Part shown: piece after piece, positions 33,663-48,546 of the stretch | Layout: the number at the start of each line of letters is the position of its first letter | Position numbering within the stretch: position 1 is the first letter of the stretch | The notes under the pieces: model-generated | The model's database searches: none | What the model was told of the DNA's origin: nothing | Seen by the model: the letters and a program-made list of their open reading frames with translations, nothing else | Program-made: the position numbers and the translations under genes | From: Aquificales bacterium | GTDB taxonomy: Bacteria > Aquificota > Aquificia > Aquificales > QOAS01 | Assembly: GCA_027036735.1 (NCBI GenBank) | Contig: JALWDU010000092.1 | Coordinates: 6,788-70,787 of the forward strand | Direction of reading: 5' to 3' | Length of the DNA: 64,000 nt

Positions 33663-33894
33663 CAGACTCAAGATTTGATGTCAAGTAATGGATTGAAAAT
33701 TGACAAAAACCTTTTGCAGGTTTGAGTTTTGTCTTAGAGTTCCAACAAGATGGCTCACCTCAAGGAATTAATGTCAATATAGGGTTGACCTTTTAAGTCA
33801 ATTTTTACTTGACCTTTTAAGGTCGTTTTGGTATCTTTTAAACCCAAGTAAGGGTTGGGTTCCTTGGTAACTTAATAAGGTCGGACGCACCTTG
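33663..33894 (+). promoter_or_regulatory. CRISPR leader 1, with a putative promoter
   Basis: This 232-nt block is largely repeated at 38771-39002 upstream of array 2. It has TTGACC (33809-33814), 17 nt, then TATCTT (33832-33837), and a direct repeat TTGACCTTTTAAG at 33785 and 33809. Confidence 0.55.
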
Positions 33895-34120
33895 GTTGTT
33901 ATGTCCCTAGAAGGGATTGAAACTCGGGAAAAAGACTCTGAAGTCTTTTTCTTTTTTCAAGTTGTTATGTCCCTAGAAGGGATTGAAACAAAATAGAAGA
34001 GAACACTTGTGAAAGTTGTGTTCTTGTTGTTATGTCCCTATAAGGGATTGAAACACACCTAGACACCGATAAAAATCCTTTGTGCCCTTTCGTTTTTATG
34101 TCCCTATAAGGGATTGAAAC
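33895..34120 (+). CRISPR. CRISPR array 1 (4 repeats of 29 nt, 3 spacers of 36-37 nt)
   Basis: Repeats lie at 33895, 33961, 34026 and 34092. The consensus is GTTGTTATGTCCCTA[G/T]AAGGGATTGAAAC, and the last copy begins GTTTTT. Confidence 0.93.
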
Positions 34121-34215: not shown

Positions 34216-34566
34216 TTAACAATTGCCCTTCAAAACCTCAAAAGGGTTTAAATCCCCGTTCCAAAGTTCGGGGTGCCACCACCAGTGGGTTTTCGGTCTA
34301 TCGGGGTCGTAGGTTAGGGGAATATAACCCTCTTTTAGGAATTCTTTAGCGTTCTCCCACAAAAGGGTTAAAGCTTTCCTCTTTTCCTCACAGGGGATAT
34401 TGGGGTCTTCTATATCCTCGCTGAAGGTTTCAAACCAAGACCACTCCTCACCGGGGATAAAATCTCCACTTTTCCACGCTTTGGGGTTGAAAAGTCCTAT
34501 ATACCAAAGGTTGGGAAGTTCTTTTTTTAGTTCCTCTTTGGGTGGGTTGGGTTTCATATCCTCCAT
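34216..34566 (-). CDS. hypothetical Trp-rich protein (116-122 aa)
   Basis: ORF only (..WSWFETF..THWWWHPELWNG..). The track start at 34584 is TTG; the first ATG is at 34566. Divergent from cas3. Confidence 0.45.
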   Translation of the reverse strand: MEDMKPNPPKEELKKELPNLWYIGLFNPKAWKSGDFIPGEEWSWFETFSEDIEDPNIPCEEKRKALTLLWENAKEFLKEGYIPLTYDPDRPKTHWWWHPELWNGDLNPFEVLKGNC

Positions 34567-34606
34567 TGTCAGAATTTCATACAATCCACTGTTTGTTATA
34601 AATACT

Positions 34607-36970
34607 ATGCAAATGCCCCAAAGCGGTATCTATTCCCACCCAAATGTCCTTTTGGAGGAACATATAAACAACGTTCTTTCCATATATAGGACATTGAAAA
34701 ATGACCTTTTACCCTTTTGGGGCGGTGAAATTTTAACAACCTTGGAGGTTTCTATAGCCCTCCACGACATAGGTAAGGCTACCGAATACTTTCAGAGGAA
34801 GCTAAGGGGTGAAAGATTAAACTCCAAAGAGAGGAAATATTCCCAACACTCACTTTTTTCGGCTGTTTATACTTTCTACAAGCTCCATAAGGAGTTTTTT
34901 GAAGATTTCGAATACCCCCTATTGGGGTATTTCTTGGTCGCAAATCACCACGCGGGTATTTTAAAAAGTTTCAAAGACCTCTTAAAGTTGTCGGAAGATG
35001 ATATAGAAACCTTTTTGGTTCAACTCAATTCTATAAACCCCGAAGAGGTAAACCGCTTTGTTGAAAACATAGACCTACCGAGGGAGTGGAAGGAAAAGCT
35101 AAAACTCCAAAGGGAGGAATTTGAAACCTTCCTAAAAGAGGAACTTTTAGACCTCTTTGACGACCTCTCTTGGGATTTGGAGGATTACATAAAACCCTCT
35201 TTGGAGAGATACATAACCTTGCTTTACCTCTTTTCGCTTTTGGTCGATGCCGACAAAACCGAGGCGGGTGCTAAGGGTGTTCCCCACTTTTTGGGGAGGA
35301 GAATAGATATTCCACCCTCTTTGGTCGAGGAGTATGTAAAGACCCTTAAGGGGAACTCACCGATTAACAGACTCCGCCAAAGGGTTTTTGAGGAGGTTAA
35401 GACCTTTGAGGTGGATACAAAGGAACATTTTTACACCCTAACCTTGCCAACCGGTTATGGAAAAACCCTTATAGGTCTCCTATTCGCTTTAAAACTCAAA
35501 AGGGAGATAGAGAGGGAAACCCAAAAGGAGGTTAGGCTAATTTACTCCCTGCCCTTTTTGAGTATCATCGACCAAAACACAAGGGTGTTCGAAGAGGTTT
35601 TGAAACCTTTGGGGGAAAGGGTTGTCGTAAAGCATCACCACCTATCGCTGGGAGAATATTTGAAACAACAGGAGGAGGATTACGAGCTAACCCGCATTTT
35701 GGTCGAAGCTTGGAACGCCCCGGTTGTTATAACTACCTTCGTCCAGCTGTTCCACACCTTGTTGGCTTATTCCAATTCCAACGCGAGGAGGTTAAACAAA
35801 CTCTCAAATGCCGTCGTTTTGGTTGACGAGATTCAGGCTCTCCCGCCGAAGTATTGGTATCTGTTCGAAAAATACCTAAAAGAGGTCGCAAAAAATCTAA
35901 ACACCTACTTTGTATTTATGACCGCTACTCAACCCTATTTGGTGGAGGGAAGGGAGGTTATCCGAAATAGGGAGACCTATTTCAATTCGGTAAACCGCTA
36001 CGGGGTTTCTTTAAAATTGGAAGAGACACTCTTTGGGGAATTTTTGGAGAGTTTAAAGCCCGAAGAGGGAACCCTTTACATCCTCAACACCATTAGGAGT
36101 TCCCAAGAGGTCTATAGGTATTTGACGGAGGGGCTTGGCATTCCGAAGGGGGAGGTTGCATACCTATCGGCGAGTCTGACACCTAACGACCACCGAAGGC
36201 GGCTTATTGATTTGAAAAAGGGAAAATACCGCTTCGCGGTTTCAACCCAAGTCGTGGAGGCGGGGGTCGATATAGACTTTCCCCGCGTGGTTAGGGATTT
36301 CGCACCGCTAGATGCCCTAATCCAATCCGCCGGTAGGTGCAACCGAAACTTTACCTTTGAAAAGGGAACCCTTGAGGTGGTCAATCTAATAGATAAAAAC
36401 GATAGGAGGTTTGCTTCCTATATTTACGACCCTATTCTGTTAAAAACCACCTTGGAACTCCTCCTAAAGGAGAGACCGAAAGATGAAAGGGAACTGACGA
36501 GGTTGGTTGAAAAGTATTTCGACCTATTAAAGGAGCTAAAAAGCAAGGACACTTCAAAGGAGCTTTTGGAAAAAATCGAAAATTTGAACTTTAAGGATAT
36601 TCCTTGTAGGAAGGAAAAAGATAAGAACAAAAAGGAGAAAACCAAAGGTTTTTGTTTCATCGAAGATGAACCCTACAAGGCGGACGTATTCGTTCAGACC
36701 GACCAAAGGGCGGTCGAAATTTGGAACACCGCAAAGGGTATCATTCGAAAATTGAGGGAGAAAAAACTAACCCTCTTTGAGGCAAAGAGGGAATTCGAAA
36801 AACTCAAAGGGGACTTCTACGGGTATGTCATCTCCGTGAGGGTGGATAAGAATAAACCACCCTTCGATGAGGAGCTAAATACCTACTATGTCCCTATAGA
36901 GGAACTCGAAAACTATTACGACCCCGAAATAGGTTTTATCTTTGAGGGAGAAACTTATGGAGAGTATTGA
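34607..36970 (+). CDS. cas3: CRISPR-associated helicase/nuclease Cas3 (HD plus helicase, 787 aa)
   Basis: HD region (ALHDIGKATEYFQ..VANHH) and helicase motifs (LTLPTGYGKT, VLVDEIQAL, SAGRCNR). The start is taken at Met 70 of track ORF 34400-36970. Confidence 0.9.
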   Translation: MQMPQSGIYSHPNVLLEEHINNVLSIYRTLKNDLLPFWGGEILTTLEVSIALHDIGKATEYFQRKLRGERLNSKERKYSQHSLFSAVYTFYKLHKEFFEDFEYPLLGYFLVANHHAGILKSFKDLLKLSEDDIETFLVQLNSINPEEVNRFVENIDLPREWKEKLKLQREEFETFLKEELLDLFDDLSWDLEDYIKPSLERYITLLYLFSLLVDADKTEAGAKGVPHFLGRRIDIPPSLVEEYVKTLKGNSPINRLRQRVFEEVKTFEVDTKEHFYTLTLPTGYGKTLIGLLFALKLKREIERETQKEVRLIYSLPFLSIIDQNTRVFEEVLKPLGERVVVKHHHLSLGEYLKQQEEDYELTRILVEAWNAPVVITTFVQLFHTLLAYSNSNARRLNKLSNAVVLVDEIQALPPKYWYLFEKYLKEVAKNLNTYFVFMTATQPYLVEGREVIRNRETYFNSVNRYGVSLKLEETLFGEFLESLKPEEGTLYILNTIRSSQEVYRYLTEGLGIPKGEVAYLSASLTPNDHRRRLIDLKKGKYRFAVSTQVVEAGVDIDFPRVVRDFAPLDALIQSAGRCNRNFTFEKGTLEVVNLIDKNDRRFASYIYDPILLKTTLELLLKERPKDERELTRLVEKYFDLLKELKSKDTSKELLEKIENLNFKDIPCRKEKDKNKKEKTKGFCFIEDEPYKADVFVQTDQRAVEIWNTAKGIIRKLREKKLTLFEAKREFEKLKGDFYGYVISVRVDKNKPPFDEELNTYYVPIEELENYYDPEIGFIFEGETYGEY

Positions 36971-37457
36971 GGGGATTAACGGCACCTTGGTGTGGTATTT
37001 TCACATCTGCCCCCGACAGGTTTGGTATATCTACCACGCCCTTGCGGGGGAACAGGATAACGATTTTCTCCTCTTGGGAAGGCATATCCACGAAGTCTTT
37101 TACAGGAACCGCAAAAGGGAGCTATTAATAGACAACACCATTAAGGTGGACTTTATCGAAGAAGAGGGACTTATAGCGGAGGTCAAAAAGAGCTCCAAAA
37201 ACCTAAAGAGCGCCCTGATGCAACTTGCCTTTTACCTCTATTATTTCAAACACAAAAAGGGTGTAGCCCTATCGGGGAAACTCCTAATCCCCGAAGAGAG
37301 GAAACAAATAAAAGTCGAACTTACGGAGGAACTGGAAAGGGAACTTGAAGAAACCTTTAGGGGGATTAGGGAAATAATTTCTAAACCCCTTCCACCGCCA
37401 CCCCGCAAGATTCCCCACTGCAAGAGGTGCGCCTATAGGGAGATTTGTTGGGTTTAG
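36957..37457 (+). CDS. cas4: CRISPR-associated exonuclease Cas4
   Basis: One N-terminal Cys (HICPRQ) plus a C-terminal CKRCAYREIC, and an EVKKS-type nuclease motif. The ATG at 36957 is preceded by GAGGGAG; the track start at 36942 is TTG. Confidence 0.85.
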   Translation: MESIEGINGTLVWYFHICPRQVWYIYHALAGEQDNDFLLLGRHIHEVFYRNRKRELLIDNTIKVDFIEEEGLIAEVKKSSKNLKSALMQLAFYLYYFKHKKGVALSGKLLIPEERKQIKVELTEELERELEETFRGIREIISKPLPPPPRKIPHCKRCAYREICWV

Positions 37458-37468
37458 ACTAACCTTTA

Positions 37469-38464
37469 ATGGCAAAAAATATCTATATACACAGCAGCGG
37501 TTCCTTAAAAAGAAAGGACAACACCCTAAGGTTGGAACTCCAAGATGGAACAAAAAGGGTCATACCGATAAACGACGTATCCGCTATTTACGTTTTCGGA
37601 GAATTGGAACTCAACAAAAGGGTTTTGGAATTTTTAACAACCCACAAGGTGGCAATTCACTTTTTCAACCGCTACGGGTATTATGTTGGGAGCTACTACC
37701 CAAGGGAGTATCTAAACAGCGGTTTAATGACCCTAAAACAGGCGGAACATTACCTCTCACCCGAAAAGAGGCTCTACTTAGCCCGCTCCTTTGTGGAAGG
37801 AGGACTGAAGAATATCCTCAAAACGCTCAAATATTACCGCTCCAAAAGGGGTAAAAACGAACTGGAAACCACCGAAGGTTTTATAAAGGCAAAGATTGAA
37901 GAACTCAAAGGGGTTGATTCGATAGAACAGATAATGCAAATAGAGGGTTCGGCGAGGGAGGAGTACTACAAGAGCTGGAAACACATAATCGAAAACCCGG
38001 AATTTGTTTTCGAAAAGAGGGAAAAGAGACCGCCGACCAACGAAATAAACGCACTTATCAGCTTCGGGAATAGCTTGGTTTACACTTTGACGCTTTCGGA
38101 GATATACCATACATATTTAGACCCGAGGATTGGATACCTGCACGAGACCAATAGGAGGAGCTTTTCCCTCAATTTGGATATTGCGGAAATTTTTAAACCC
38201 ATTATGGTCGATAAGGTTATCTTTACCCTCCTAAATAGGGGACTTCTAAAAACTCCCGACCACTTTGAGGAGGCTATAGGAAACACCTACCTAAACGAGA
38301 AGGGGAGAAAAATCTTTATAAAACACTTTGAGGAGAAGCTGAAAACAACCTTTAAACATCCCAATTTGGGTAAGATTTCCTACAAGAGGTTAGTTCGCTT
38401 GGAGTGTTATAAGCTCTACAAACACTTTTTGGGGGAAAGGGAATATCAACCTTTGGTGGTTTAG
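37469..38464 (+). CDS. cas1: CRISPR-associated endonuclease Cas1
   Basis: 331 aa; ..REKRPPTNEINALISFGNSLVY..LDPRIGYLHE..SLNLDIAEIFKP.. Confidence 0.95.
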   Translation: MAKNIYIHSSGSLKRKDNTLRLELQDGTKRVIPINDVSAIYVFGELELNKRVLEFLTTHKVAIHFFNRYGYYVGSYYPREYLNSGLMTLKQAEHYLSPEKRLYLARSFVEGGLKNILKTLKYYRSKRGKNELETTEGFIKAKIEELKGVDSIEQIMQIEGSAREEYYKSWKHIIENPEFVFEKREKRPPTNEINALISFGNSLVYTLTLSEIYHTYLDPRIGYLHETNRRSFSLNLDIAEIFKPIMVDKVIFTLLNRGLLKTPDHFEEAIGNTYLNEKGRKIFIKHFEEKLKTTFKHPNLGKISYKRLVRLECYKLYKHFLGEREYQPLVV

Positions 38465-38479
38465 AGGAGGTTTAAACCT

Positions 38480-38743
38480 ATGTTTGTGGTTTTGGTCTAT
38501 GATGTAAAACAGAAAAGGGTCGGGAAGGTTCTAAAAATCTGCAGGAAATATCTAACCCACGTCCAAAATTCGGTGTTTGAAGGAGAAATAACACCCGCAA
38601 AGTTGAGAATTCTTAAAGACGAACTCAAAGGGGTTATAGACGAGGATTACGACAGCGTGATTATATACAAATTCCGCCTACCCGCAGAGGAGAGGGAGAT
38701 TTTAGGAATAGAACCCCCTTCGGCGGAGGATATTTTCTTTTGA
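38480..38743 (+). CDS. cas2: CRISPR-associated endoribonuclease Cas2
   Basis: 87 aa; MFVVLVYDV..KICRKYLTHVQNSVFEGEIT. Confidence 0.9.
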   Translation: MFVVLVYDVKQKRVGKVLKICRKYLTHVQNSVFEGEITPAKLRILKDELKGVIDEDYDSVIIYKFRLPAEEREILGIEPPSAEDIFF

Positions 38744-39002: not shown

Positions 39003-39296
39003 GTTCTTATGTCCCTATAAGGGATTGAAACACAGCATCGAAAGCACCATCTCCCCATTCAGTTGCAGGTTCTTATGTCCCTATAAGGGATTGAAACCCC
39101 TCGCCACCGAACACGAAGCCGACGCGGGGCTCATGTTCTTATGTCCCTATAAGGGATTGAAACTCATTCCAGTTGAATCCGTAAAAGTTGCAAACCAAAG
39201 AGTTTTTATGTTCCTAAGAGGGATTGAAACTCGTGAAACCCAGGTCTTCTAAGAATTTAGCAAGGAAGTTTTTATGTTCCTAAGAGGGATTGAAAA
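39003..39296 (+). CRISPR. CRISPR array 2 (5 repeats, 4 spacers of 37-38 nt)
   Basis: Repeats lie at 39003, 39069 and 39135 (GTTCTTATGTCCCTATAAGGGATTGAAAC), and at 39202 and 39268 (degenerate GTTTTTATGTTCCTAAGAGGGATTGAAA[C/A]). Confidence 0.93.
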
Positions 39297-39321
39297 GAGG
39301 CTGAAACTTAGGTTTTGGTTT

Positions 39322-39879
39322 CTAACCTATGAGGGCGTATAGGACCACAAACTTGCTATCTTCAAAGAGAGGTTTAAATCCGTAGTTTTTATAAGCCTTA
39401 ACAAGTTTAGGATAACCTTCTATTTTTGCAACATCTAAAGTTATCAAACGTGTTCCCACTTTTTCGTTGATTTCCTTACAAATTGCAAAAGCAAACTTTA
39501 AAAATTTTTCCAAAGGAAGTTCCTCTTTTGGAACGCCATCTGCTCTACAGATTTGAGCTATAAAGAACGAATGTATATGGTCTTGTTCCTTTCTGAAACC
39601 TTTGAAAATTTCCTTTCTTTTAGTTTTGCTTAAAGTTTCCGGTAAAGTTATGGAGCGAATTCCCAAAGTTATAAATCCCCTCAAATAAGGTTTTTCGTTC
39701 CCTATCCAAAGGTAGGTTCTGACTACATCCCTTTTGTCAAAGGTCCAAGCCGATTTTTTCAAAAAGTTCTCCACTAAAGGATGCCGTTTGCACGAGAAAT
39801 CTTTTAGAAGAAACTCAAACTCATTTTTCGTTAAGTCTTTCAGCTTCCATGGCTCTTTTAAGAAATTGTTTGAGCTCAT
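39322..39879 (-). CDS. GNAT-fold acetyltransferase-like protein (TacT-like toxin?), tentative
   Basis: 185 aa with a strong GGAGGAGAGG RBS. FLKKSAWTFDKRDVVRTYL resembles the FLxxxA....SRTYV segment of TacT-type GNAT toxins, and the C-terminus ..LVKAYKNYGFKPL is GNAT-like. No clear Q/RxxGxG/A motif. Confidence 0.45.
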   Translation of the reverse strand: MSSNNFLKEPWKLKDLTKNEFEFLLKDFSCKRHPLVENFLKKSAWTFDKRDVVRTYLWIGNEKPYLRGFITLGIRSITLPETLSKTKRKEIFKGFRKEQDHIHSFFIAQICRADGVPKEELPLEKFLKFAFAICKEINEKVGTRLITLDVAKIEGYPKLVKAYKNYGFKPLFEDSKFVVLYALIG

Positions 39880-40048
39880 TTAACCTCTCCTCCATTTTCT
39901 TAGGGTCGTTAAGAGTCCCAATCCATTCTTCAACTTCCGGGTCCGTTTCGAATTTTATAGGTTCCTCGTGTTCCAAAGCCCACATAAGCTTTTCCCAAGC
40001 CTTTTCGTCAACTTCTATGTGAAGTCTAAGTATTTGTTTGCCCTCCAT
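39821..40048 (-). CDS. hypothetical 75-aa protein upstream of the GNAT-like gene
   Basis: ORF only. It overlaps the GNAT-like ORF by 59 nt and has no obvious RBS. Confidence 0.3.
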   Translation of the reverse strand: MEGKQILRLHIEVDEKAWEKLMWALEHEEPIKFETDPEVEEWIGTLNDPKKMEERLNELKQFLKRAMEAERLNEK

Positions 40049-40168: not shown

Positions 40169-40264
40169 GTTTTTATGTCCCTATAAGGGATTGAAACCGA
40201 TTTGGCTATCGAAGGTGGGACTGAAACCTCTATTAGCTTTTATGTTCCTATGAGGGATTGAAAC
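40169..40264 (+). CRISPR. mini-array 3 (2 repeats, 1 spacer-like 38-nt segment)
   Basis: Repeats at 40169 (GTTTTTATGTCCCTATAAGGGATTGAAAC, identical to the last repeat of array 1) and at 40236 (GCTTTTATGTTCCTATGAGGGATTGAAAC). The spacer itself contains GGGACTGAAAC (40217-40227), a 10/11 match to the repeat 3' end. Confidence 0.7.
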
Positions 40265-40624
40265 AGTTGATTTTTTCAAAATAAACTTTTCCACTCTCTC
40301 ATAGTATTCTTTAACCTTTTCCAAAACTACATCAAAGGAAACATTTTTTAGTCCAAGTTCGGGAACGGTGTAAAAACCGGGGATGGAAAAGTTTTTAGTT
40401 TTTTCAGAAAGATATTCCAAACCTCCTATAGGTCTATCGCCATATAGCTCTATATAAAGGTATAGAATTCTTCCCTTCTCGTCAGCGGCTAAAGAAAGTT
40501 CGGGGATATCTTCGACTAACTCTTTGTAAAGTTCCTCCGCTCGGTCAAAATCTTTGTCTTTAGCTTTATGACTATCAAGTTCTACACCATCTAAATAAGG
40601 CTCGGGGGTAAAGTGTAATTTCAT
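40181..40624 (-). CDS. hypothetical protein whose 3' end reads into CRISPR mini-array 3
   Basis: 147-aa ORF. The last ~28 codons (40181-40264) are the reverse translation of repeat and spacer sequence, so the native C-terminus is probably lost. Confidence 0.4.
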   Translation of the reverse strand: MKLHFTPEPYLDGVELDSHKAKDKDFDRAEELYKELVEDIPELSLAADEKGRILYLYIELYGDRPIGGLEYLSEKTKNFSIPGFYTVPELGLKNVSFDVVLEKVKEYYERVEKFILKKSTVSIPHRNIKANRGFSPTFDSQIGFNPL

Positions 40625-40713: not shown

Positions 40714-41040
40714 ATGAAGGAATACGAAAAATTGCTTATAGATTACGCCAAATACTTAAGTATTATGAAAGATGAAGCAAAGGAGTATGCGAAGACGCTT
40801 TCAGGGGAAAGTTACTATCTCATAATTAACGACCTTCCCACCATAGAAAGGATGAAGCAGAGATTGTTAAAATTGCTCCCTAAAGCTCATCAAAAAGAAA
40901 TCCTTTCCAAATTAGCTAAAAATGAATTTGAAATTTATCGAATTCTGCAGAATACACCCTTAGCCAAACCTTTTGCGGAAGCGGTAAAGCTTAACCTTCA
41001 TCATCCATCGCCGGCCACCGTGGTAAAAGCCAAATCTTAA
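40714..41040 (+). CDS. hypothetical protein (108 aa)
   Basis: ATG with a GAAGAGGTGGG RBS and no recognisable motif. Confidence 0.45.
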   Translation: MKEYEKLLIDYAKYLSIMKDEAKEYAKTLSGESYYLIINDLPTIERMKQRLLKLLPKAHQKEILSKLAKNEFEIYRILQNTPLAKPFAEAVKLNLHHPSPATVVKAKS

Positions 41041-41042
41041 AC

Positions 41043-41426
41043 CTAATAATCCTCCCAACTTTCAACTTTCCATTTCGGTTTTTCCTCAAAAACCTCAAAC
41101 CTTTTGAGGTAGAAATTCCTTTCCAAATACCAAGAGGGGAAAAAGTACCACTTATCCCCTTCGGAGTAATCCCAAGAAAAACAAACCGCCGAAAAGGTTT
41201 TCATAAAATAAAAAGGCTCTAAAAGTCTTTCTATTTCCGAAAAGGGGAGTTCGTTAGCCCATTCCCTAAGGGTTTCGTCTTTTGCATCCGCAACTTTTGA
41301 GAGTATTTGAAGTAAAAATTCCTCCGAGAGTTTATCTTCCTTTAATTCCAAATCGGAAAAGGTTAAACCCCTTACCGCAACCCTTTCCTCGTAAGGAGAA
41401 GCCAAATACCCCAAAAGAACCAGCAT
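41043..41426 (-). CDS. hypothetical protein (127 aa), translationally coupled to cas6
   Basis: Its ATG (41424-41426) overlaps the cas6 stop TAA (41426-41428) as TAATG. No recognisable motif. Confidence 0.55.
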   Translation of the reverse strand: MLVLLGYLASPYEERVAVRGLTFSDLELKEDKLSEEFLLQILSKVADAKDETLREWANELPFSEIERLLEPFYFMKTFSAVCFSWDYSEGDKWYFFPSWYLERNFYLKRFEVFEEKPKWKVESWEDY

Positions 41427-42166
41427 TAAACCCTTATTTTTGCGGGCAAAACCATTCCGAAACCGGCGCTATTTTTCGCACCCAAACCGGTTTCAAATGC
41501 CAACTTCAGTACCTCTTTAGGGGCTTTTATCCTATATATCCCTTCCCAAGCCTTTATTAAGGTTCCTTTAAACACCACCTTTTTGAAATCCCTTCCTGAC
41601 ACCTTTACGGGTTCTATTTCTATTTCACCCTCAAAAGGTCTCCCATAAACGAGCATAAATTTCTTTTTAAGGTTTTCCCTTAAAAGTCTGTAAAATTCCT
41701 CCTCGTGAGGTGTTAGGTAGTTAAAAAACTTACTCCCCGGTTCGGTTTTATAGACCACTATAGGGGAAAGGGTTTTAACCTCAACCTCTTCGGGGATTTC
41801 TTCCAAAACTACCGCTTCCACATTTAGGAGCTCTAGTTTATTTTCACCCAAAAAGAGGTCTTTGTTTTCCAAAATCACCTTTCGGAGGGTGGAAATACTC
41901 ACCTCATTTTTGGGAGAGGCGAAATATATCCTAAATGTGGGTTTGTAATAGACATATTCGTTGTCCTTTTTGAGGAATTTCCCGAAAATTTTTGAGAACG
42001 TAAAGAGTTTAAACTTCCTCTTTCCGAGCTCGTAGCCCCTATCGTGCAAAAAGGTTGCGATTTGTTCGTCCATATTCTTGTAGAAGAAAGCCTGCAGTAG
42101 GCGGTTGTAATGTTTGGGAAGTTTCAAAGCCGCGCCTTCGGCGCGGAATACGAATTTCAAAATCAT
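41426..42166 (-). CDS. cas6: CRISPR-associated endoribonuclease Cas6
   Basis: 246 aa. The C-terminal glycine-rich loop ETGLGAKNSAGFGM and overall size are typical of Cas6. Confidence 0.88.
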   Translation of the reverse strand: MILKFVFRAEGAALKLPKHYNRLLQAFFYKNMDEQIATFLHDRGYELGKRKFKLFTFSKIFGKFLKKDNEYVYYKPTFRIYFASPKNEVSISTLRKVILENKDLFLGENKLELLNVEAVVLEEIPEEVEVKTLSPIVVYKTEPGSKFFNYLTPHEEEFYRLLRENLKKKFMLVYGRPFEGEIEIEPVKVSGRDFKKVVFKGTLIKAWEGIYRIKAPKEVLKLAFETGLGAKNSAGFGMVLPAKIRV

Positions 42167-42330
42167 AGTGTCAGATTTCTATCATACCGCCCGTTCTATA
42201 GTGACCTCCTCCCCACATCTTTGATGTGGGGCTTCCCGCTTCATCGTGGGCAGAGCCCACTCCACGGGCGTCACTTCCCCGCGGTCCACGGGTAGGGCAG
42301 ACTTTAGGCGGTCTGCCAGCGCCTTATTCT
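42150..42330 (-). ncRNA. putative TnpB guide RNA (omega/reRNA) scaffold overlapping the tnpB 3' end
   Basis: Called by analogy with IS200/IS605 TnpB elements. On the minus strand I see stems GGCAGAC..GTCTGCC (42286-42307) and CCCCACATC-AAA-GATGTGGGG (42211-42231). The extent is a guess. Confidence 0.25.
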
Positions 42331-43602
42331 TCTTTGCTAACTGCTTTAATCCAATCTTTAATATGTTCCACGCTCCATTTAAGTCTCTATCAATTTCTAA
42401 ACCGCATTTCGGACATTTATAAGTTCTCTCATTTAATCCAATTCGTTGTTTAAAACCACATCTACAGCAATTTTGCGTTGTTGCTTCGTATTTCGGCACA
42501 AATTCCACAAGGATAAGGGTCGCAAGGTATTTTAGCCTTGCAGTTATTCCCCCTATCCCTGTGTTTTGAACTTCTTTCCCAAACAATCCTTTGTGCCAAC
42601 CTTTTATGTCATCTCTTTGAACCGCTATAAACGGAAACCTCTTCAAGTAGCTTATTACCTTATTTATCGTATCCTTCCTTCTGTTTTTGATATATTCCCA
42701 TTCCTTCTGTATCAACTTTTTAACCTTTTGATAGTTTTTGCTCCCTTTCCTCTTTCTTACCAAAATCTTTTGCAACCTTTTAAGCCTCTTCGTTTCGGGA
42801 ATATACCACTTAAACCTCTCCCCCGTTGTTAAGGTTAGCTGGTATTTAATACCTAAATCTATACCTACTGGAATTGAAGTCTGTTTTTGCTTAATTTCCC
42901 TTAAAACTTCCTCTCTCCAAAGATAGCAAACCACATATAGATAAAAGCCCGAAGGCTTTTTAACCAGAAAAGCGTTTACAATCTCTGAATTTTTAGGTAT
43001 CTGATGCAATCCCAAAACTCTAAACCACTTTCTAATGCCTTGAACTTTAATTCTATTCCTTTCGAAGTCTATTTTGTAGGTAATCCCGAATTGCTTAAGA
43101 GGAATGCTTTTAAAATCGGATTTAAATTGGAGCTTTCCTACCTTATAACCTTGCTCTTTTAGAGTTTTTAAAGCTTTAAGGCTATTTTTAATCCTTTCAA
43201 TAATGCCTTGTTTAACTTGAGAACCTAAGAGTTTAAGTTTCCTTTTTTCAAAACCGTTAGGAGTTTTAATTTCTACCACTTTAAGTTTTTCGGATAGTTT
43301 GTTTAATCGGCTGTCAATATCTGCGATGAGGTAGTTATAGAACCATTTAGCCTCTAAGAAAAGTCTTTCTAAGGTTTTTATATCGGATTTAGAGAGGTTT
43401 TGGAGTTTTAGTTGGAAGACTTTGGGAGTTTGGAGTTTTCTTTTTTCCTTGGTTTGTTTAAGTGATTGCCTGATTTTTTCGGCTTTAGTCATAACTCCAA
43501 ACTCCCTTAAATAAGTATTTTAAAACCTATCGGCCGCCATTCATCCCCGCAAGTCGGATAGGGGACTTTCTGGCGTGATTTTCCGTAAATAGGAGCGGCA
43601 AA
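42167..43602 (-). mobile_element. tnpB-only IS200/IS605-like element (IS1341-type), ends not defined
   Basis: It fills the whole interval between the cas6 ATG (42166) and the cas8b ATG (43603). No tnpA is present, and I could not define the LE/RE hairpins confidently. Confidence 0.45.
42182..43492 (-). CDS. tnpB: IS200/IS605-family TnpB (OrfB) RNA-guided nuclease homologue
   Basis: 436 aa. RuvC-I VGIDLG, zinc finger CCRCGFK..CPKCGLEIDRDLNGAWNI, and a C-terminal tail typical of thermophile OrfB proteins. The RuvC-II position reads IAVQRDDIKGW. Confidence 0.9.
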   Translation of the reverse strand: MTKAEKIRQSLKQTKEKRKLQTPKVFQLKLQNLSKSDIKTLERLFLEAKWFYNYLIADIDSRLNKLSEKLKVVEIKTPNGFEKRKLKLLGSQVKQGIIERIKNSLKALKTLKEQGYKVGKLQFKSDFKSIPLKQFGITYKIDFERNRIKVQGIRKWFRVLGLHQIPKNSEIVNAFLVKKPSGFYLYVVCYLWREEVLREIKQKQTSIPVGIDLGIKYQLTLTTGERFKWYIPETKRLKRLQKILVRKRKGSKNYQKVKKLIQKEWEYIKNRRKDTINKVISYLKRFPFIAVQRDDIKGWHKGLFGKEVQNTGIGGITARLKYLATLILVEFVPKYEATTQNCCRCGFKQRIGLNERTYKCPKCGLEIDRDLNGAWNILKIGLKQLAKKNKALADRLKSALPVDRGEVTPVEWALPTMKREAPHQRCGEEVTIERAV

Positions 43603-45261
43603 ATGTTGGAAGCACTGGCACTTCTGGGTGAGGTTTTTGGAAAATTCACCCTTTGGGACGATTTTACAGCCGATTATATCCTCGTTTTGGAACTTGATAG
43701 AGAGGGAAACCTTAAGGGGATAGATTTGGAGGAATTTACCAAAGATAGGGTGGAAAAGTATCTTTACAAAAATAGCGGAACGTCTAATCCACCCTCTTGG
43801 ACTCCCACCTTGGCTTTAAACAAAAAGGAACCCGTTAAGAGTTTGAGACTTTTGAACCGACAACTGAAGGAGCTTTTGGGAATAGAACTCAAAAGGGATT
43901 TGGAAAAATTGAGCGAACTGATAAAGGAAACCATTAAAGAGATTCCTAAAAGAAAGACGATTTTTATAACGACCAAAATTGAAGGGAAATATTTGGGGGA
44001 AATACCGGAAGTGGTTGAAAATTTAAAAGAATTCCTCAAAAGGAGATTTGAGGAAAGGGCGACCGATGGGGTTTGTTCGCTCTGTTTAAAACCAACAAAA
44101 GTAGTCGGAAAGGATAATTTCCCCTTTAAGTTCTACACCTTGGATAAACCCGGTTTTATCCACGGAGGGTTTAGAGATGAGACCTACGTTTTCCCCCTTT
44201 GTTGGGACTGCATTCAAAAGGTCAAAGAGGGCGGAAACTACGTAAGGGAAAAACTAAACTTCTCCTTCACAAAAGGGGTTAACTTTTATTTAATTCCCGA
44301 ATTGGTTAGGGAGGATAAAGAAACCCTTAAGAGGTTGGTTGAGAAAATTCTCCAACCCCAAGCGGAAACAAAAGATGGACTGACCGAAGAGAGGGCAAGT
44401 TCGCTAATAGCCGACGAGAGGAGGATTTTCAATCGAATTTCCAAAGAGGGAAACTACTTCTATATCCACCTATTGTTTATAACTAAGGAACAATCGGCGG
44501 AGAGGATAGACCTATACCTGCAGGGGATTTATCCATCGAGGTTAAAAGACCTCTTTGAGTGCAAAAGGAAAGTTGAAAACCTCTTGGAGGAGGAGATTAC
44601 CTTTAACTACTCCACCGCAAGGGAATTTTTTGAAGACAGCACCTTTTACGAATACATCTATTCCACCTTTAGGGGTGTTGCCTTCGACAAAAACACCCTT
44701 TTGGGGAACGTTTTGGAAAAATTGCGGACTATTAGTGTTGAGGTTGAAAAGGGAGAACCCCTATCGAAGTTGGTTTTTGCCATTAAAAGAGCCCTTGCGG
44801 TTTATCTGTTCGAACTATGCACCCGAGGAGGTTTGAATATGTCGGAACAAGGTAGGGAAACCTTGGAGGGATTTTTAAACCAATTTCCCCACCTCAAGGG
44901 GGATTTTGAAAAGGGAGTGTTCCTTTTGGGGGTTTTGACCCAAACTTTATTGGAAAAACAATACGGGGAGAGGGGAAATAAGCCATTCCTCAAAAAGTTA
45001 AAAGGTTTCAAACTCCACCTTGAGGACTTTATAGGACTTTACCCCGAACTTAGGGCGAAATTTGAGGAATACGACTTTTGGGGAAAGAGAATTGCATTCC
45101 TATTTGAGGAAGCTGGTAGATACCTCCTAAGGTCTCCCGAAAAGCCGAAGGTCTCCCAAAGGGAGGCGAATTTCATCTTTGCAACCGGTATGGGTCTGAA
45201 AAAAGAGGTTTTCGACCTCTTAAAGGAGGAAGAAAAAGAGGAGGTGGCTCAAAATGGGTGA
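43603..45261 (+). CDS. cas8b: type I-B large subunit Cas8b (TM1802-like)
   Basis: 552 aa with an AGGAG RBS and Cys pairs CSLC..CWDC. It lies immediately upstream of cas7-cas5. Confidence 0.78.
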   Translation: MLEALALLGEVFGKFTLWDDFTADYILVLELDREGNLKGIDLEEFTKDRVEKYLYKNSGTSNPPSWTPTLALNKKEPVKSLRLLNRQLKELLGIELKRDLEKLSELIKETIKEIPKRKTIFITTKIEGKYLGEIPEVVENLKEFLKRRFEERATDGVCSLCLKPTKVVGKDNFPFKFYTLDKPGFIHGGFRDETYVFPLCWDCIQKVKEGGNYVREKLNFSFTKGVNFYLIPELVREDKETLKRLVEKILQPQAETKDGLTEERASSLIADERRIFNRISKEGNYFYIHLLFITKEQSAERIDLYLQGIYPSRLKDLFECKRKVENLLEEEITFNYSTAREFFEDSTFYEYIYSTFRGVAFDKNTLLGNVLEKLRTISVEVEKGEPLSKLVFAIKRALAVYLFELCTRGGLNMSEQGRETLEGFLNQFPHLKGDFEKGVFLLGVLTQTLLEKQYGERGNKPFLKKLKGFKLHLEDFIGLYPELRAKFEEYDFWGKRIAFLFEEAGRYLLRSPEKPKVSQREANFIFATGMGLKKEVFDLLKEEEKEEVAQNG

Positions 45262-46219
45262 GAAAACCCTATTTCCTACAAAGGGACAAAACCCCGAAGG
45301 GCAAACTATTAAAAGAAGGGAATACCTATTCCTCTACGACGTTAAGAACGCCAACCCCAACGGCGACCCGCTTGACGAAAACAAGCCGAGAATGGACGAG
45401 GAAAGCGGTAAGGTACTGGTTACCGATGTGAGGCTAAAGAGGGTTATAAGGGACACCCTCGAGGAGCTCGGAGAGTGTGTTTTCCTCTCAAAGGAGAGGG
45501 TTTTGAAGGACGACCAACAGAAGAAAACGAGGGATGAACTCCTCAAAGAGTTTGGAAACGACCCCTTTAAAGCCGTTGAGAGTTGCATAGATTTAAGACT
45601 CTTTGGGGCAACCTTTTCGGTGAAAAATAACAACTTCTCCCTAACGGGACCCGTTCAGTTCAACTTCGGATATACCCTCCACAGGGTTGAGCCGAAATTG
45701 ATAAAGGGAACGACCATCCTCCCCTCCAAGGAGGATAAAAAACAGGGAACCTTTACCGAAATGTGGATTATCCCCTACGGGCTTATAGTCTTCTACGGGG
45801 TGGCTAACCAGTTCGCCGCAAAGGATACCGGTCTGACCGAAGATGACCTAAACAAAATGGCTAAGGCTATGTGGCTCGGGACAAAAGCCTCCACCGATGT
45901 GCTATCCCACTCCAAAATGGGGCACTCCCCGAGGCTCCTCATAGAGGTGGTTTACAAAGATGGTGTTAAAACCCAAATGGGAGAGTTGGACGCCCTCGTA
46001 AGGGTTGAGGTAAAAGGCGATAAGACCGAAGAGGAAGTTAGGGATATAGAAGACCTCGTGGTGGATTTGTCGAGGCTCAAAAAGAGGGTAGAACGCTATA
46101 GGGACAAAATTGAGAAGGTTCGCTACGCTATTGACGACCGAATAGAGCTGAAGCAACCCCTCGAGGAGGTTTTCGAAGGTATCCAGTTAGAGGAATTCGA
46201 TTGGTTTGAAGAGGTTTGA
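45254..46219 (+). CDS. cas7: type I-B Cas7 (Csh2/DevR family)
   Basis: YDVKNANPNGDPLDENKPR signature. Confidence 0.9.
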   Translation: MGEKTLFPTKGQNPEGQTIKRREYLFLYDVKNANPNGDPLDENKPRMDEESGKVLVTDVRLKRVIRDTLEELGECVFLSKERVLKDDQQKKTRDELLKEFGNDPFKAVESCIDLRLFGATFSVKNNNFSLTGPVQFNFGYTLHRVEPKLIKGTTILPSKEDKKQGTFTEMWIIPYGLIVFYGVANQFAAKDTGLTEDDLNKMAKAMWLGTKASTDVLSHSKMGHSPRLLIEVVYKDGVKTQMGELDALVRVEVKGDKTEEEVRDIEDLVVDLSRLKKRVERYRDKIEKVRYAIDDRIELKQPLEEVFEGIQLEEFDWFEEV

Positions 46220-46222
46220 CCT

Positions 46223-46954
46223 ATGAGGGTGGTCGTTTTCGATATTTGGGGAACCTTCGCCCACTTTAGGAAGTTTTGGACTACCTCCTCCTCCTTGAGT
46301 TATCCCTTTCCACCTCCTCCCACCGTTAGGGGGATTTTGGGTGCGATTTTGGGTTTCCGTAAAGAGGAATATATAAGAAAAACCGAACCTTTTAAGGTTG
46401 GGGTGAGGATATTGAATCCCGTTAAGAGGTTAAAGGTAAGTTTGAACTTGATAGACACCAAAAGGTTGGGAACCGGTTTTAATAACCTCGCGAGGAATAT
46501 AAGGAAAAACGGAATTCTCCACACCCAAGCGGTGGTTGAAATTTTGAAAAACCCCAAATATAGGATTTATGTATCCTCCGAAGACCCTAAATTGTTGGAG
46601 GATTTAGAGGAAACCCTTAAAGGGGAGGAAAATGTTTATACAATCTCCCTCGGGTGGGCTAACTTTTTGGCTAAATACTCCTATAAAGGAGCTTTTGAAG
46701 GGAAATTTATTGAGACCTCAAAGAGGGTAGATTCGGTTATTCCGGTCGAAAATGCCCTAAATTTGGATTTTGAAAGGGAAAATCCCCAATACCTTGCAAG
46801 GGATAGAATACCTTTAAAACTCGCAGAGGATAGGAAACCTCTAAATTACACCTCGGTGGTCTATTCTTTAGACGCAAAACCTTTAAAGGGAGAATTTAAA
46901 AACTTAATAGAACTCCAAAAGGAAGAGAAAGAAATTATTCACCTATTCGGTTAA
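46223..46954 (+). CDS. cas5: type I-B Cas5
   Basis: MRVVVFDIWGTFAHFRKFWTTSSSLSYPFPPPPTVRGILGAILG N-terminal Cas5 signature. Confidence 0.87.
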   Translation: MRVVVFDIWGTFAHFRKFWTTSSSLSYPFPPPPTVRGILGAILGFRKEEYIRKTEPFKVGVRILNPVKRLKVSLNLIDTKRLGTGFNNLARNIRKNGILHTQAVVEILKNPKYRIYVSSEDPKLLEDLEETLKGEENVYTISLGWANFLAKYSYKGAFEGKFIETSKRVDSVIPVENALNLDFERENPQYLARDRIPLKLAEDRKPLNYTSVVYSLDAKPLKGEFKNLIELQKEEKEIIHLFG

Positions 46955-48546
46955 ACGAGCGACAACATCTCCCTTAAGAAGAAGTAATTTCTTTTCAAAT
47001 CCTCTTTGGGGTTGTATTCCTTTATAAACCTGTAGGCGGAGGCGATATTTCGGATTAAGTCGGTGGCGCGAACACTTTCGGTAAATTTTTCCTTCTCCGC
47101 AAGTTCGCCGGCTACGGCGTGGAGGGATACGCCCAATATTAAGGCTTCCTTTACGGGCATTTTTCCTATTAGCGCCCCCAAAATGCCGGAGAGAACGTCC
47201 CCGACACCGCCCTTCGCCATGGCGGGTGTGCCCCTAACGTTTACAAAGGCTTCCCCCTCGGGGGTGGCTATTACCGTTCTCGCCGCCTTTAGGACGATGT
47301 AGCAGTTATTTTCGACGGCAAAGTTTCTCGCAACCTCTATCTGGTTGTGGATTATCTCCTCCCTGTAGAGTCCCGTAAGTCTCTGCATCTCTCCCACGTG
47401 GGGCGTCAATACGGCGGGTATCTCCCTTTTACGGAGGAGCTCTTTACCCTTTGCACCCATGTCGGCGAGGTTGTTTATTCCATCGGCGTCCACCACGAGG
47501 GGTTTTTCCCATCGGGTTAAAAAGTCCTCCACGAGTTCCTGACCACCCTTATACCTCCCCATTCCGGGTCCCAACACCAGGGATGTATACCTCTTGTAGT
47601 CCTCGCTTTCGAAGATAAAGTCCCCCAAAAGGGGGTGTAAATATCCCCTTTCCGCCTCGGGTAGGGGTTTGGTCATCTCCTCGATAAGGGCGTTTTCCAA
47701 AACCGGATTTAGGCTCTCGGCAACGCCGGCGGTTACCAAGCCGGCGCCGGCTTCGGTCGCCGCCTTCGAAGCCATTATTACCGCACCGGTAAAGCCGGAA
47801 CTACCGCCGATAATGAGAACGTGCCCCTCGCGGTTTTTGTAGGTATAGGGAGACCTTTGGGGGATTAATTTTTTTACCTCCTGAAGCTCTATGAGTTCGG
47901 TTTTTAACTCCTCCTCCCAAAGGTGGATGGGAATGGATATATCCCTAATAAGGACTTTTCCGCAGTAAGCCGATGCCGGATAGAGGACATGTCCGTATTT
48001 AGGAAGGGCGAAGGTTATGGTCATCTCCGCCCTAACGACCGGTTCTATCACCTCCCCGCTATCGGAGGATATTCCGCTCGGTATATCGACGGCAACCACC
48101 GGTTTGCCGGAGGTGTTTATTTTCTTTATTACCTCAACCCATCTCCCCTTAACGGGAGGTTTGAAACCGGTTCCAAAAATGGCGTCGATTATTAGGTCGA
48201 ATTCCTCCAAAGGGGGTAGTTCCCTTACGAATTTCACACCCACCTTTTGGGCTATTTCGTATTGAACCCTGCAGTCGTCCTTTAATTCATCTCCCCCGTA
48301 GGGGAGGAAAACGGTCACATCCCTTTTATTGCGGATTTTTAAAATTCTTCCCGCCGCTATTCCGTCGCCACCGTTGTTGCCCTTACCCGCAACCACGAGT
48401 ATTTTTTTCGCCTCGGGGTAGAAGCGTATGACCGCGTTGGCAACACCCCTTGCGGCGTTCTCCATTAGGACGAGGGAGGGAATGCCGATATCCTCTATGG
48501 TGCGGCGGTCGAGCTCTTGCATCTGCTGGGCTCTGACGAGCTTCAT
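46951..48546 (-). CDS. nnr: bifunctional NAD(P)H-hydrate repair enzyme (epimerase/dehydratase)
   Basis: YjeF-N part (AGKGNNGGDG) plus a carbohydrate-kinase-like part (IIGGSSGFTGA, GGVGDVLSG). Confidence 0.9.
   Translation of the reverse strand: MKLVRAQQMQELDRRTIEDIGIPSLVLMENAARGVANAVIRFYPEAKKILVVAGKGNNGGDGIAAGRILKIRNKRDVTVFLPYGGDELKDDCRVQYEIAQKVGVKFVRELPPLEEFDLIIDAIFGTGFKPPVKGRWVEVIKKINTSGKPVVAVDIPSGISSDSGEVIEPVVRAEMTITFALPKYGHVLYPASAYCGKVLIRDISIPIHLWEEELKTELIELQEVKKLIPQRSPYTYKNREGHVLIIGGSSGFTGAVIMASKAATEAGAGLVTAGVAESLNPVLENALIEEMTKPLPEAERGYLHPLLGDFIFESEDYKRYTSLVLGPGMGRYKGGQELVEDFLTRWEKPLVVDADGINNLADMGAKGKELLRKREIPAVLTPHVGEMQRLTGLYREEIIHNQIEVARNFAVENNCYIVLKAARTVIATPEGEAFVNVRGTPAMAKGGVGDVLSGILGALIGKMPVKEALILGVSLHAVAGELAEKEKFTESVRATDLIRNIASAYRFIKEYNPKEDLKRNYFFLREMLSLV

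Follow-up and report, generated by a model that had tools for sequence, protein, structure and literature searches.

A tnpB-only IS200/IS605 element with a probably rearranged RuvC site in the cas6–cas8b spacer of a type I-B CRISPR-Cas locus

A stretch of 64,000 nt on contig JALWDU010000092.1 of an Aquificales bacterium (hereafter "the window", meaning this whole stretch) carries a type I-B CRISPR-Cas set of cas8b, cas7, cas5, cas6, cas3, cas4, cas1, and cas2 together with its arrays, as identified by Pfam searches. All cas open reading frames (ORFs) of the locus are intact according to the ORF map and Pfam. Two of these genes, cas6 on the minus strand and cas8b on the plus strand, are divergent and separated by 1436 nt (42167-43602), and it is the DNA between them that we describe here. 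We recognize positions 42201-43584 on the minus strand as a non-autonomous member of the IS200/IS605 family of insertion sequences (IS) that carries tnpB as its only gene (Table 1). The encoded TnpB has a glutamine, Q292, where the RuvC-II motif is expected to have its catalytic glutamate, and most of our argument concerns what this residue means.

To delimit the element, we aligned both of its ends with those of nine other copies, which encode the closest TnpB homologues (77-91% identity) and lie in differing genomic contexts, and extended the end junctions to about 15 loci by BLAST and junction extraction. Homology among more than 10 copies begins and ends at identical bases, which gives a shared, asymmetric left end (LE) and right end (RE). 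On the right, homology ceases at ...GGGGAGGAGGTCAC (window position 42201) in all copies, the next bases being unrelated between them, and the RE closes with ...GGTCAC in every insertion examined (ten independent copies). On the left, the pentanucleotide immediately 5' of the LE is TTTAC in 9 of 10 independent insertions and CTTAC in the tenth; insertion is 3' of this TTAC-like target without target-site duplication. The initial annotation of this DNA had pointed to further copies as the means of defining LE, RE, and the transposon-associated motif (TAM), and ten independent insertions now define all three. Its call of a solo-tnpB element of IS200/IS605 type is likewise borne out by Pfam, the shared ends, and the TAM. 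It had the size of the interval right but let the element fill all of it: the element measures 1384 bp (42201..43584), and the remaining 52 nt are ancestral intergenic spacer. It had also placed the tnpB stop 15 nt from the cas6 start codon, and this distance holds on the minus strand (TGA at 42184-42182, ATG at 42166-42164). It is the distance to the ORF and not to the element, which ends 34 nt from the ATG, as the tnpB stop lies outside the element and the ORF extends 6 codons past the RE into the flank. The end of a tnpB ORF should thus not be taken for the end of the transposon.

Orthologous loci reached through Cas6 homologues provide the state before insertion. The informative ones are L013 and L094, which are fully IS-free, and L012, which offers an uninterrupted target junction only. 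In L013 (Cas6 78% identical) and L094 (Cas6 73% identical), cas8b and cas6 stand back to back with IS-free spacers of 54 and 52 nt, respectively. BLAST collinearity with the window is broken at 43592/42202 for L013 and at 43586/42200 for L094, so that the DNA that is extra in the window relative to the IS-free loci spans 42201-43585. L012 (Cas6 89% identical) reads straight through the target as CTATTTAC/TATAGAACGGG, that is, TTTAC/TATAGAAC (the slash marks the junction). The identical insertion is present in a second sample (L011), which bears the same arrays and spacers as the window. A search of JGI metagenome contigs for exact matches to the predicted empty-site 19-mer CTATTTACTATAGAACGGG gave 7 hits, all unrelated and without homology to the window. 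These comparisons indicate that the element inserted 3' of TTTAC within an ancestral 52-nt spacer between divergent cas8b and cas6 of a type I-B locus in an Aquificota host.

The L012 locus also holds a different TnpB element (L012:3-836) upstream of cas6 and in the same orientation. In its TnpB, Gly takes the place of the canonical Glu, and the alternative Glu known from the literature is present ("EDESYTTQLC"). What appears to be the RE of this element (L012:837-931) consists of a hairpin and ...GAGTGTCAT and stops about 95 nt short of the cas6 ATG. Between that point and the TTTAC junction lie 61 nt that show no homology to the cas8b side of the window. The region upstream of cas6 may be a recurrent landing site for IS200/IS605 elements.

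TnpB matches the Pfam families OrfB_IS605 (PF01385, 2.1e-11) and Cas12f1-like TNB zinc ribbon (PF07282, 5.4e-15). An AlphaFold2 model of good overall confidence (pLDDT 89.3, pTM 0.81; residues 405-428 disordered) finds ISDra2 TnpB, ISFba1 TnpB (the second best match), Fanzor2, and Cas12f in Foldseek searches. Compared with other copies, the window copy shows a ratio of nonsynonymous to synonymous substitution rates (dN/dS) of 0.08-0.13 over residues 1-400, which suggests that strong purifying selection acts on the protein. At the C-terminus of the ORF, approximately 35 residues come from translation of the DNA that specifies the omega RNA, and there dS falls and dN/dS rises.

The final approximately 120 nt of the element combine a high G+C content with strong conservation, and some copies carry whole extra hairpins at loop positions. 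RNAalifold folds this segment into five helices, and the minimum free energy of the single sequence (z -3.8) beats all 200 shuffles. A covariance model, R1, which we built from 11 copies, gives 55 hits, all on the tnpB strand and nearly all at the 3' end of tnpB, in hosts ranging from Aquificota to Thermoplasmata and Asgard archaea. The window sequence at 42201-42322 scores 145.8 bits with all helices intact, and covariance-model detection, as advised in the initial annotation, thus does find an omega RNA. In the R1 alignment, pairing is seen in 88% of cells and compensatory change in 28 of the 34 pairs. Its covariation score of 0.476 compares with 0.167 when the alignment is shuffled and with 0.04-0.12 when pairing partners are slid. 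All this argues that the omega RNA is a real structured RNA overlapping the 3' end of tnpB. No Rfam family reaches its gathering score within the element. The best sub-threshold match of the omega RNA core is RAGATH-18 (42233-42268, minus strand; E 5.8e-4, 32.9 bits where the gathering score is 44.9), and HgcC matches very weakly at 42189-42262. At E<=0.01, neither family turned up in nine related loci.

By analogy to characterized TnpB systems, the guide portion of this RNA is predicted to be the flank 3' of the RE. The initial annotation had expected the guide to be 5' sequence of cas6 itself, and the guide is indeed cas6-proximal, but it corresponds to the untranslated leader (42200 to approximately 42181) and not to coding sequence. 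As ordinary flank, the guide sequence differs in every copy. Its only match in the window is its own junction, where it is preceded by TCAC in place of TTAC. The ribonucleoprotein, if it works like characterized TnpB systems, would recognize TTTAC followed by the flank sequence, a combination that would exist only in the IS-free or excised allele, and cutting of that allele would favor retention or re-copying of the element. We propose that the donor junction would itself be protected, in the way usual for such donor sites, because it has TCAC instead of TTAC.

The canonical D-E-D triad of the RuvC site is incomplete in this TnpB. Of its members, D212 and D370 are present, and Q292 stands at the position of the glutamate; the initial annotation had already read the CAA codon at 42617-42619 and the intact GIDLG and DRDLN motifs correctly. 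Its assignment of Q292 to the canonical RuvC-II position is supported by several lines of evidence. Q292 aligns with catalytic E278 of ISDra2 TnpB (8bf8/8h1j) in a phmmer alignment that is ungapped around the motif, and in the AlphaFold2 model it forms the C-terminal end of strand 288-292 like the canonical Glu. We counted residues in 120 close homologues (54-100% identity) and in 139 representatives of distant clusters (33-56% identity), and glutamine prevails at this position in both sets (Table 1). The clade motif Q-D-[E/D]-N-[IL]-K-x-W matches the canonical E-D-L-N-h-K-G-M residue for residue, with the acid shifted two positions onto the former Leu. The register of the alignment is confirmed by a paralogue from Nitrososphaerota (L057) because it has a glutamate exactly at 292. 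A register shift that would set residue 294 on the canonical Glu was considered and rejected, given that D293, N295, [IV]296, K297, and [WM]299 match ungapped and that L057 has its E at 292. The L057 gene itself (2501-3769) reads YEDDAIKAW, while its three paralogues L053, L055, and L056 have Gln (YQDDTIKAW), and the Asp at +2 is retained.

Q292 is the fixed state of a large clade of bacterial and archaeal TnpBs in which the canonical E-D-L-N has become Q-x-[D/E]-x. Within this motif, D294 lies in the turn that links strand 288-292 to helix 296-301 in the AlphaFold2 model. Of the two aspartates that the initial annotation had offered for a rearranged active site, D294 and D295, only the former stands, as it is acidic in nearly all homologues and D295 is not conserved among them. 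The four cysteines of the zinc finger are conserved in close homologues and near-invariant in distant ones. From these conservation patterns, the most likely composition of a functional rearranged site is D212 + D294 + D370, to which Q292 and, in this subfamily, E336 may contribute. We consider this TnpB to be probably active with a rearranged RuvC-II motif rather than inactivated.

An active enzyme could also draw its compensating acid from E336, in the manner of the glutamate before the zinc finger of Fanzors and TnpB2, and not from D294. E336 is a glutamate in 104 of the 120 close homologues, and phmmer sets it against Fanzor2 E467, which is required for cleavage (PMC10530073). Yet this alignment needs a gap of one residue, and E336 sits at C-6 as opposed to C-7 for the published alternative Glu (regular expression in PMC10711439). 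The position is a glutamate in only 14 of the 139 distant representatives, where the wider Q clade has F, V, Y, A, or L instead, whereas position 294 is acidic in 138 of them. We therefore rejected E336 as the sole compensating glutamate and main explanation, prefer D294 as the better candidate because E336 is not conserved across the Q clade, and regard the E336 alternative as fairly improbable. What E336 possibly represents is a subfamily-specific addition to the site built on D294.

The initial annotation had also raised a different outcome, a nuclease-impaired TnpB comparable to the TnpB-like RNA-guided repressors. Such a DNA binder or repressor, similar to TldR, would possibly sit on the cas6 leader. 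The canonical Glu is indeed absent, the guide does match the cas6 leader with the RE junction one TAM base off a full target, and a degraded LE hairpin without a nearby tnpA is what one would expect of an immobilized copy. TldRs lose RuvC residues and the zinc finger, though, and here D212, D370, and the zinc finger are all retained. Moreover, Q292 is not specific to this copy and instead fixed throughout a multicopy, mobile, TnpA-linked lineage, the whole protein is under strong purifying selection, and the guide is plain insertion flank that differs from copy to copy. This repressor role is very unlikely and finds no support in the comparison with homologues. More generally, where a TnpB lacks the canonical RuvC-II Glu, clade-wide conservation should be checked before inactivation is called.

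Hosts of the Q-x-[D/E] clade include Aquificota, Thermotogota, Bacillota, Thermoplasmata, Nitrososphaeria, and Asgard archaea. Several copies can occur in single genomes, where they are up to 99.6% identical over the element length only and have differing flanks, and many distant members of the clade have a Y1 TnpA encoded immediately upstream of tnpB. These patterns point to a TnpB clade that is still mobile. The window copy stands out by its LE hairpin, with a folding energy of -8.2 kcal/mol (z -0.47) compared to -8.4 to -15.4 kcal/mol (z -2.1 to -5.8) in six other copies and a stem of 5-6 bp vs. 8-9 bp in most other copies; its RE hairpin is intact. The hairpin center (43540-43565, minus strand) shows approximately 7 substitutions within 12 nt in the window copy and L011.

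One may therefore ask if this copy is an inert fossil, immobilized in a decaying CRISPR locus and with functionless TnpB and omega RNA. Besides the degraded LE hairpin, the arrays nearest to the insertion are small (4 plus 1 spacers) with degenerate end repeats, and the insertion separates the Cascade operon from what lay upstream of it. On the other hand, the tnpB ORF is intact at a dN/dS of about 0.1 vs. other copies, the omega RNA scores 145.8 bits with every helix preserved, all cas ORFs are intact, and the insertion is present in two samples, and we regard a fossil as unlikely.

On balance, we consider it quite likely that the locus contains an IS200/IS605 tnpB-only insertion with omega RNA, a flank-derived guide, and a TnpB with a rearranged but functional RuvC site. 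A number of observations weigh against this reading. With its weakened LE hairpin, the window copy may be poorly excisable and perhaps no longer mobile. A search of the 64-kb window found no Y1 (HUH) TnpA, which makes the copy non-autonomous. None of the paper texts searched describes Gln at the RuvC-II Glu position or a Q-x-[D/E] motif, and the Q clade differs from the described rearranged clades, which have Gly or Pro at the Glu position and use another Glu ahead of the zinc finger. Finally, scans of the window and two IS-free loci for sigma-70 consensus promoters gave hits at or below chance that were irreproducible between orthologues.

The element as such is an unexceptional IS200/IS605 member, non-autonomous and lodged in the intergenic spacer of a CRISPR-cas locus. 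What deserves further attention is biochemical, namely the possibility that Q-x-[D/E] forms a functional RuvC arrangement of its own. It is conceivable, though less likely than not, that Q-x-[D/E] constitutes a third RuvC-II architecture that differs from that of Fanzors and TnpB2, with the carboxylate at +2 on the same strand-turn and a conserved Gln at the old position. If so, distinct metal coordination or cleavage would be possible, e.g., altered collateral activity. The clade is rich in thermophiles, compact, and equipped with a defined omega RNA and TAM (TTTAC), which makes it a candidate for probing the plasticity of the RuvC site.

The insertion also bears on the expression of its neighbors. 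The cas6 ATG is not preceded by any Shine-Dalgarno-like sequence (...GATAGAAATCTGACACT ATG), and the initial annotation was thus right that cas6 has no visible ribosome-binding site (RBS). This is an ancestral trait: the leaders of L012, L013, and L094 follow the consensus TATARAACGG..G.TATG.TA.....CTGACA.. ATG, none has a Shine-Dalgarno sequence, and because this state is conserved in relatives, cas6 must once have been expressed without tnpB and from signals of its own. No terminator-like site was found between the omega RNA/tnpB and cas6, and read-through is therefore plausible as an added input to cas6.

A stronger proposal would be that the cas6 promoter was lost and that expression depends only on read-through from tnpB/omega RNA, perhaps with translational coupling to the tnpB stop. 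This would fit the lack of a terminator-like site and of any minus-strand sigma-70-like hit before cas6, the stop of the tnpB ORF only 15 nt before the ATG, and the missing Shine-Dalgarno sequence. However, the leader without Shine-Dalgarno sequence is ancestral and conserved at IS-free loci, and all 34 nt of it are kept, including the conserved TATGNT. The promoter scan, too, says little here, as it also missed the promoter of tnpB and is thus insensitive at this locus. We consider exclusive dependence on read-through to be rather doubtful.

Promoter candidates picked by eye (TATGNT before cas6; TATAGT or TATCAT before cas8b) are unsupported by the scans. The sole sigma-70-like match near the insertion (42156-42185, plus strand; TTCAAA-18-TATCAT) points from inside the cas6 5' end toward cas8b. 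It now faces into the IS and is antisense to the omega RNA, lies within chance expectation, and is absent from the scans of L013 and L094.

On the other side of the element, cas8b is left with an 18-nt spacer composed of the TAM and the segment with its GGAG RBS, and its former upstream sequence is now 1.4 kb away. As far as can be judged from sequence, the cas8b-cas7-cas5 operon has lost contact with the DNA that used to lie upstream of it more clearly than cas6 has. We infer that there may be regulatory consequences for both cas6 and cas8b. Altogether, the IS insertion is clean and datable, has IS-free orthologues for comparison, and divides the bidirectional control region of a type I-B system. 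The locus thereby provides a natural test of the way in which CRISPR-Cas expression is perturbed by IS200/IS605 elements.

The type I-B genes of the window are arranged in two blocks (34400-38743 and 43603-46954). Upstream of the second array, the plus strand carries cas3-cas4-cas1-cas2; cas6 is on the minus strand, cas8b-cas7-cas5 are on the plus strand, and a convergent NAD(P)H-hydrate repair gene (46951-48546) directly follows cas8b-cas7-cas5. In L013, cas4-homologous sequence lies just downstream of cas6, which shows that gene order varies among relatives. The three arrays have a type I-B-like repeat in common that ends in ATTGAAAC, with degenerate terminal repeats. The five spacers of the second and third arrays (4 + 1) match neither the IS nor any of the fetched loci except L011. 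Between the second and third arrays, there are unannotated ORFs at 39322-39879, 39821-40048, 40181-40624, and 40714-41040 without Pfam match. A 127-aa ORF (41043-41426, minus strand), also without Pfam match, overlaps the cas6 stop in an ATGA-type junction. It occupies the same position in L011 and L012 and may be an uncharacterized cas6-linked gene.

Table 1. Positions of the element, its parts, and the adjoining CRISPR-cas features in the window (close and distant refer to the homologue sets defined in the text)
Feature	Coordinates	Strand	Details
CRISPR arrays	33887-34120, 39003-39299, 40169-40267		4, 5, and 2 repeats, respectively
cas6	41426..42166	-	246 aa, intact; Pfam Cas_Cas6_C 1.6e-33; homologues of the same length use the same start
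Retained ancestral cas6 leader	42167..42200	-	34 nt without Shine-Dalgarno sequence; TATGNT conserved 15 nt upstream of ATG; leader conserved in L012, L013, and L094
Predicted omega RNA guide	42181..42200	-	TATAGAACGGGCGGTATGAT; first 20 nt of flank after RE; length inferred
tnpB	42182..43492	-	436 aa; folded protein approximately residues 1-400; tail encoded by the omega RNA DNA and 6 codons of flank
Omega RNA scaffold / RE	42201..42322	-	Five helices; terminal hairpin 42211-42231; ends ...GGAGGTCAC at 42201
RuvC-III D370 (DRDLN)	42383..42385	-	GAC; conserved in 115/120 close (4 gaps), 136/139 distant
E336	42485..42487	-	GAA; six residues before first CxxC; E in 104/120 close, 14/139 distant; second candidate acid
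D294	42611..42613	-	GAT; D/E in 118/120 close, 138/139 distant; candidate relocated catalytic carboxylate
Q292 (canonical RuvC-II Glu position)	42617..42619	-	CAA; Q in 118/120 close, 138/139 distant
RuvC-I D212 (GIDLG)	42857..42859	-	GAT; D in 119/120 close, 139/139 distant
LE	43493..43584	-	92 nt; subterminal hairpin and tnpB RBS GGAG; kept in 13 other fetched loci, not beyond
Target/TAM pentanucleotide TTTAC	43585..43589	-	Immediately 5' of LE
Ancestral spacer on cas8b side, beyond TAM	43590..43602	+	13 nt (18 nt including TAM); cas8b RBS GGAG at 43592-43595
cas8b (TM1802)	43603..45261	+	ORF map, Pfam TM1802
cas8b-cas7-cas5 operon	43603..46954	+	Pfam TM1802, Cas7, Cas5; collinear with L013 and L094

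Among known systems, the tnpB-only (IS1341-type) members of the IS200/IS605 family are among the closest to this element, with IS608 as the mechanistic model. Likenesses include the asymmetric ends, each with a subterminal hairpin (intact at the RE of the window copy, reduced at its LE), a TTAC-type tetranucleotide 3' of which insertion occurs without target duplication, and the location of tnpB near the RE. The tetranucleotide at the RE is TCAC here and TCAA in IS608, both related to, yet unlike, the target. IS1341-type elements are mobilized in trans by a Y1 TnpA, and such TnpA is found with distant members of this TnpB clade. Unlike the IS608 model, the window copy has no tnpA and a weakened LE hairpin.

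ISDra2 TnpB (PDB 8H1J, 8EXA) has the same fold as the TnpB studied here (Foldseek E 6e-17) at 24% identity and has in common with it the aspartates of RuvC-I and of RuvC-III, the CxxC...CxxC zinc finger, an omega RNA over the 3' end of the ORF, and a flank guide. The two differ in that Gln stands here at the position of E278 of ISDra2 TnpB and is followed two residues on by an invariant Asp/Glu, and in the TAM, which is TTTAC here and TTGAT for ISDra2. The omega RNA core recalls, at sub-threshold level, the RAGATH-18-derived right-end RNA (reRNA) of IS607 TnpB (ISFba1, PDB 8IAZ), whose protein is also the second-best structural match. RAGATH-18 is the source of the guide RNAs of IS607 TnpBs (PMC11061315). 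ISFba1 TnpB differs from the window TnpB by its canonical D194/E290/D371, an AGGAG TAM, and a serine recombinase as partner.

TldR proteins resemble the window TnpB only in being TnpB scaffolds without the canonical Glu and in having a guide beside the start of a host gene. In contrast to TldR, RuvC-I, RuvC-III, and the four Cys are all intact in a full-length fold, the transposon ends and TAM are bona fide, and the guide is insertion flank and not a conserved match to a distant promoter.

The nearest precedent for the loss of the glutamate is found in the RuvC-II-rearranged TnpBs and Fanzors (RIIr clades, TnpB2/TvTnpB, ApmFanzor, "Ealt"), which likewise lack the canonical Glu clade-wide and have an alternative conserved acid available. 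According to Altae-Tran et al. 2023 (PMC10691335), RuvC-II rearrangements are conserved in TnpB and held to be active alternative sites. In the best-studied type, Gly or Pro stands in for the Glu, whose role passes to another Glu immediately ahead of the zinc finger, and this type is active in TvTnpB and Fanzors (PMC10530073; PMC10711439; bioRxiv 10.64898/2026.06.23.733943). One of these studies describes DNA cleavage by rearranged TvTnpB and Fanzors as well as E467 of Fanzor2 as the experimentally required alternative Glu (PMC10530073). Compared to these RIIr/Ealt proteins, the clade described here has Gln and not Gly or Pro, and its clade-wide acid is at +2 and not before the zinc finger. 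We place the window TnpB within this known group of RuvC-II-rearranged proteins and do not propose a new class.

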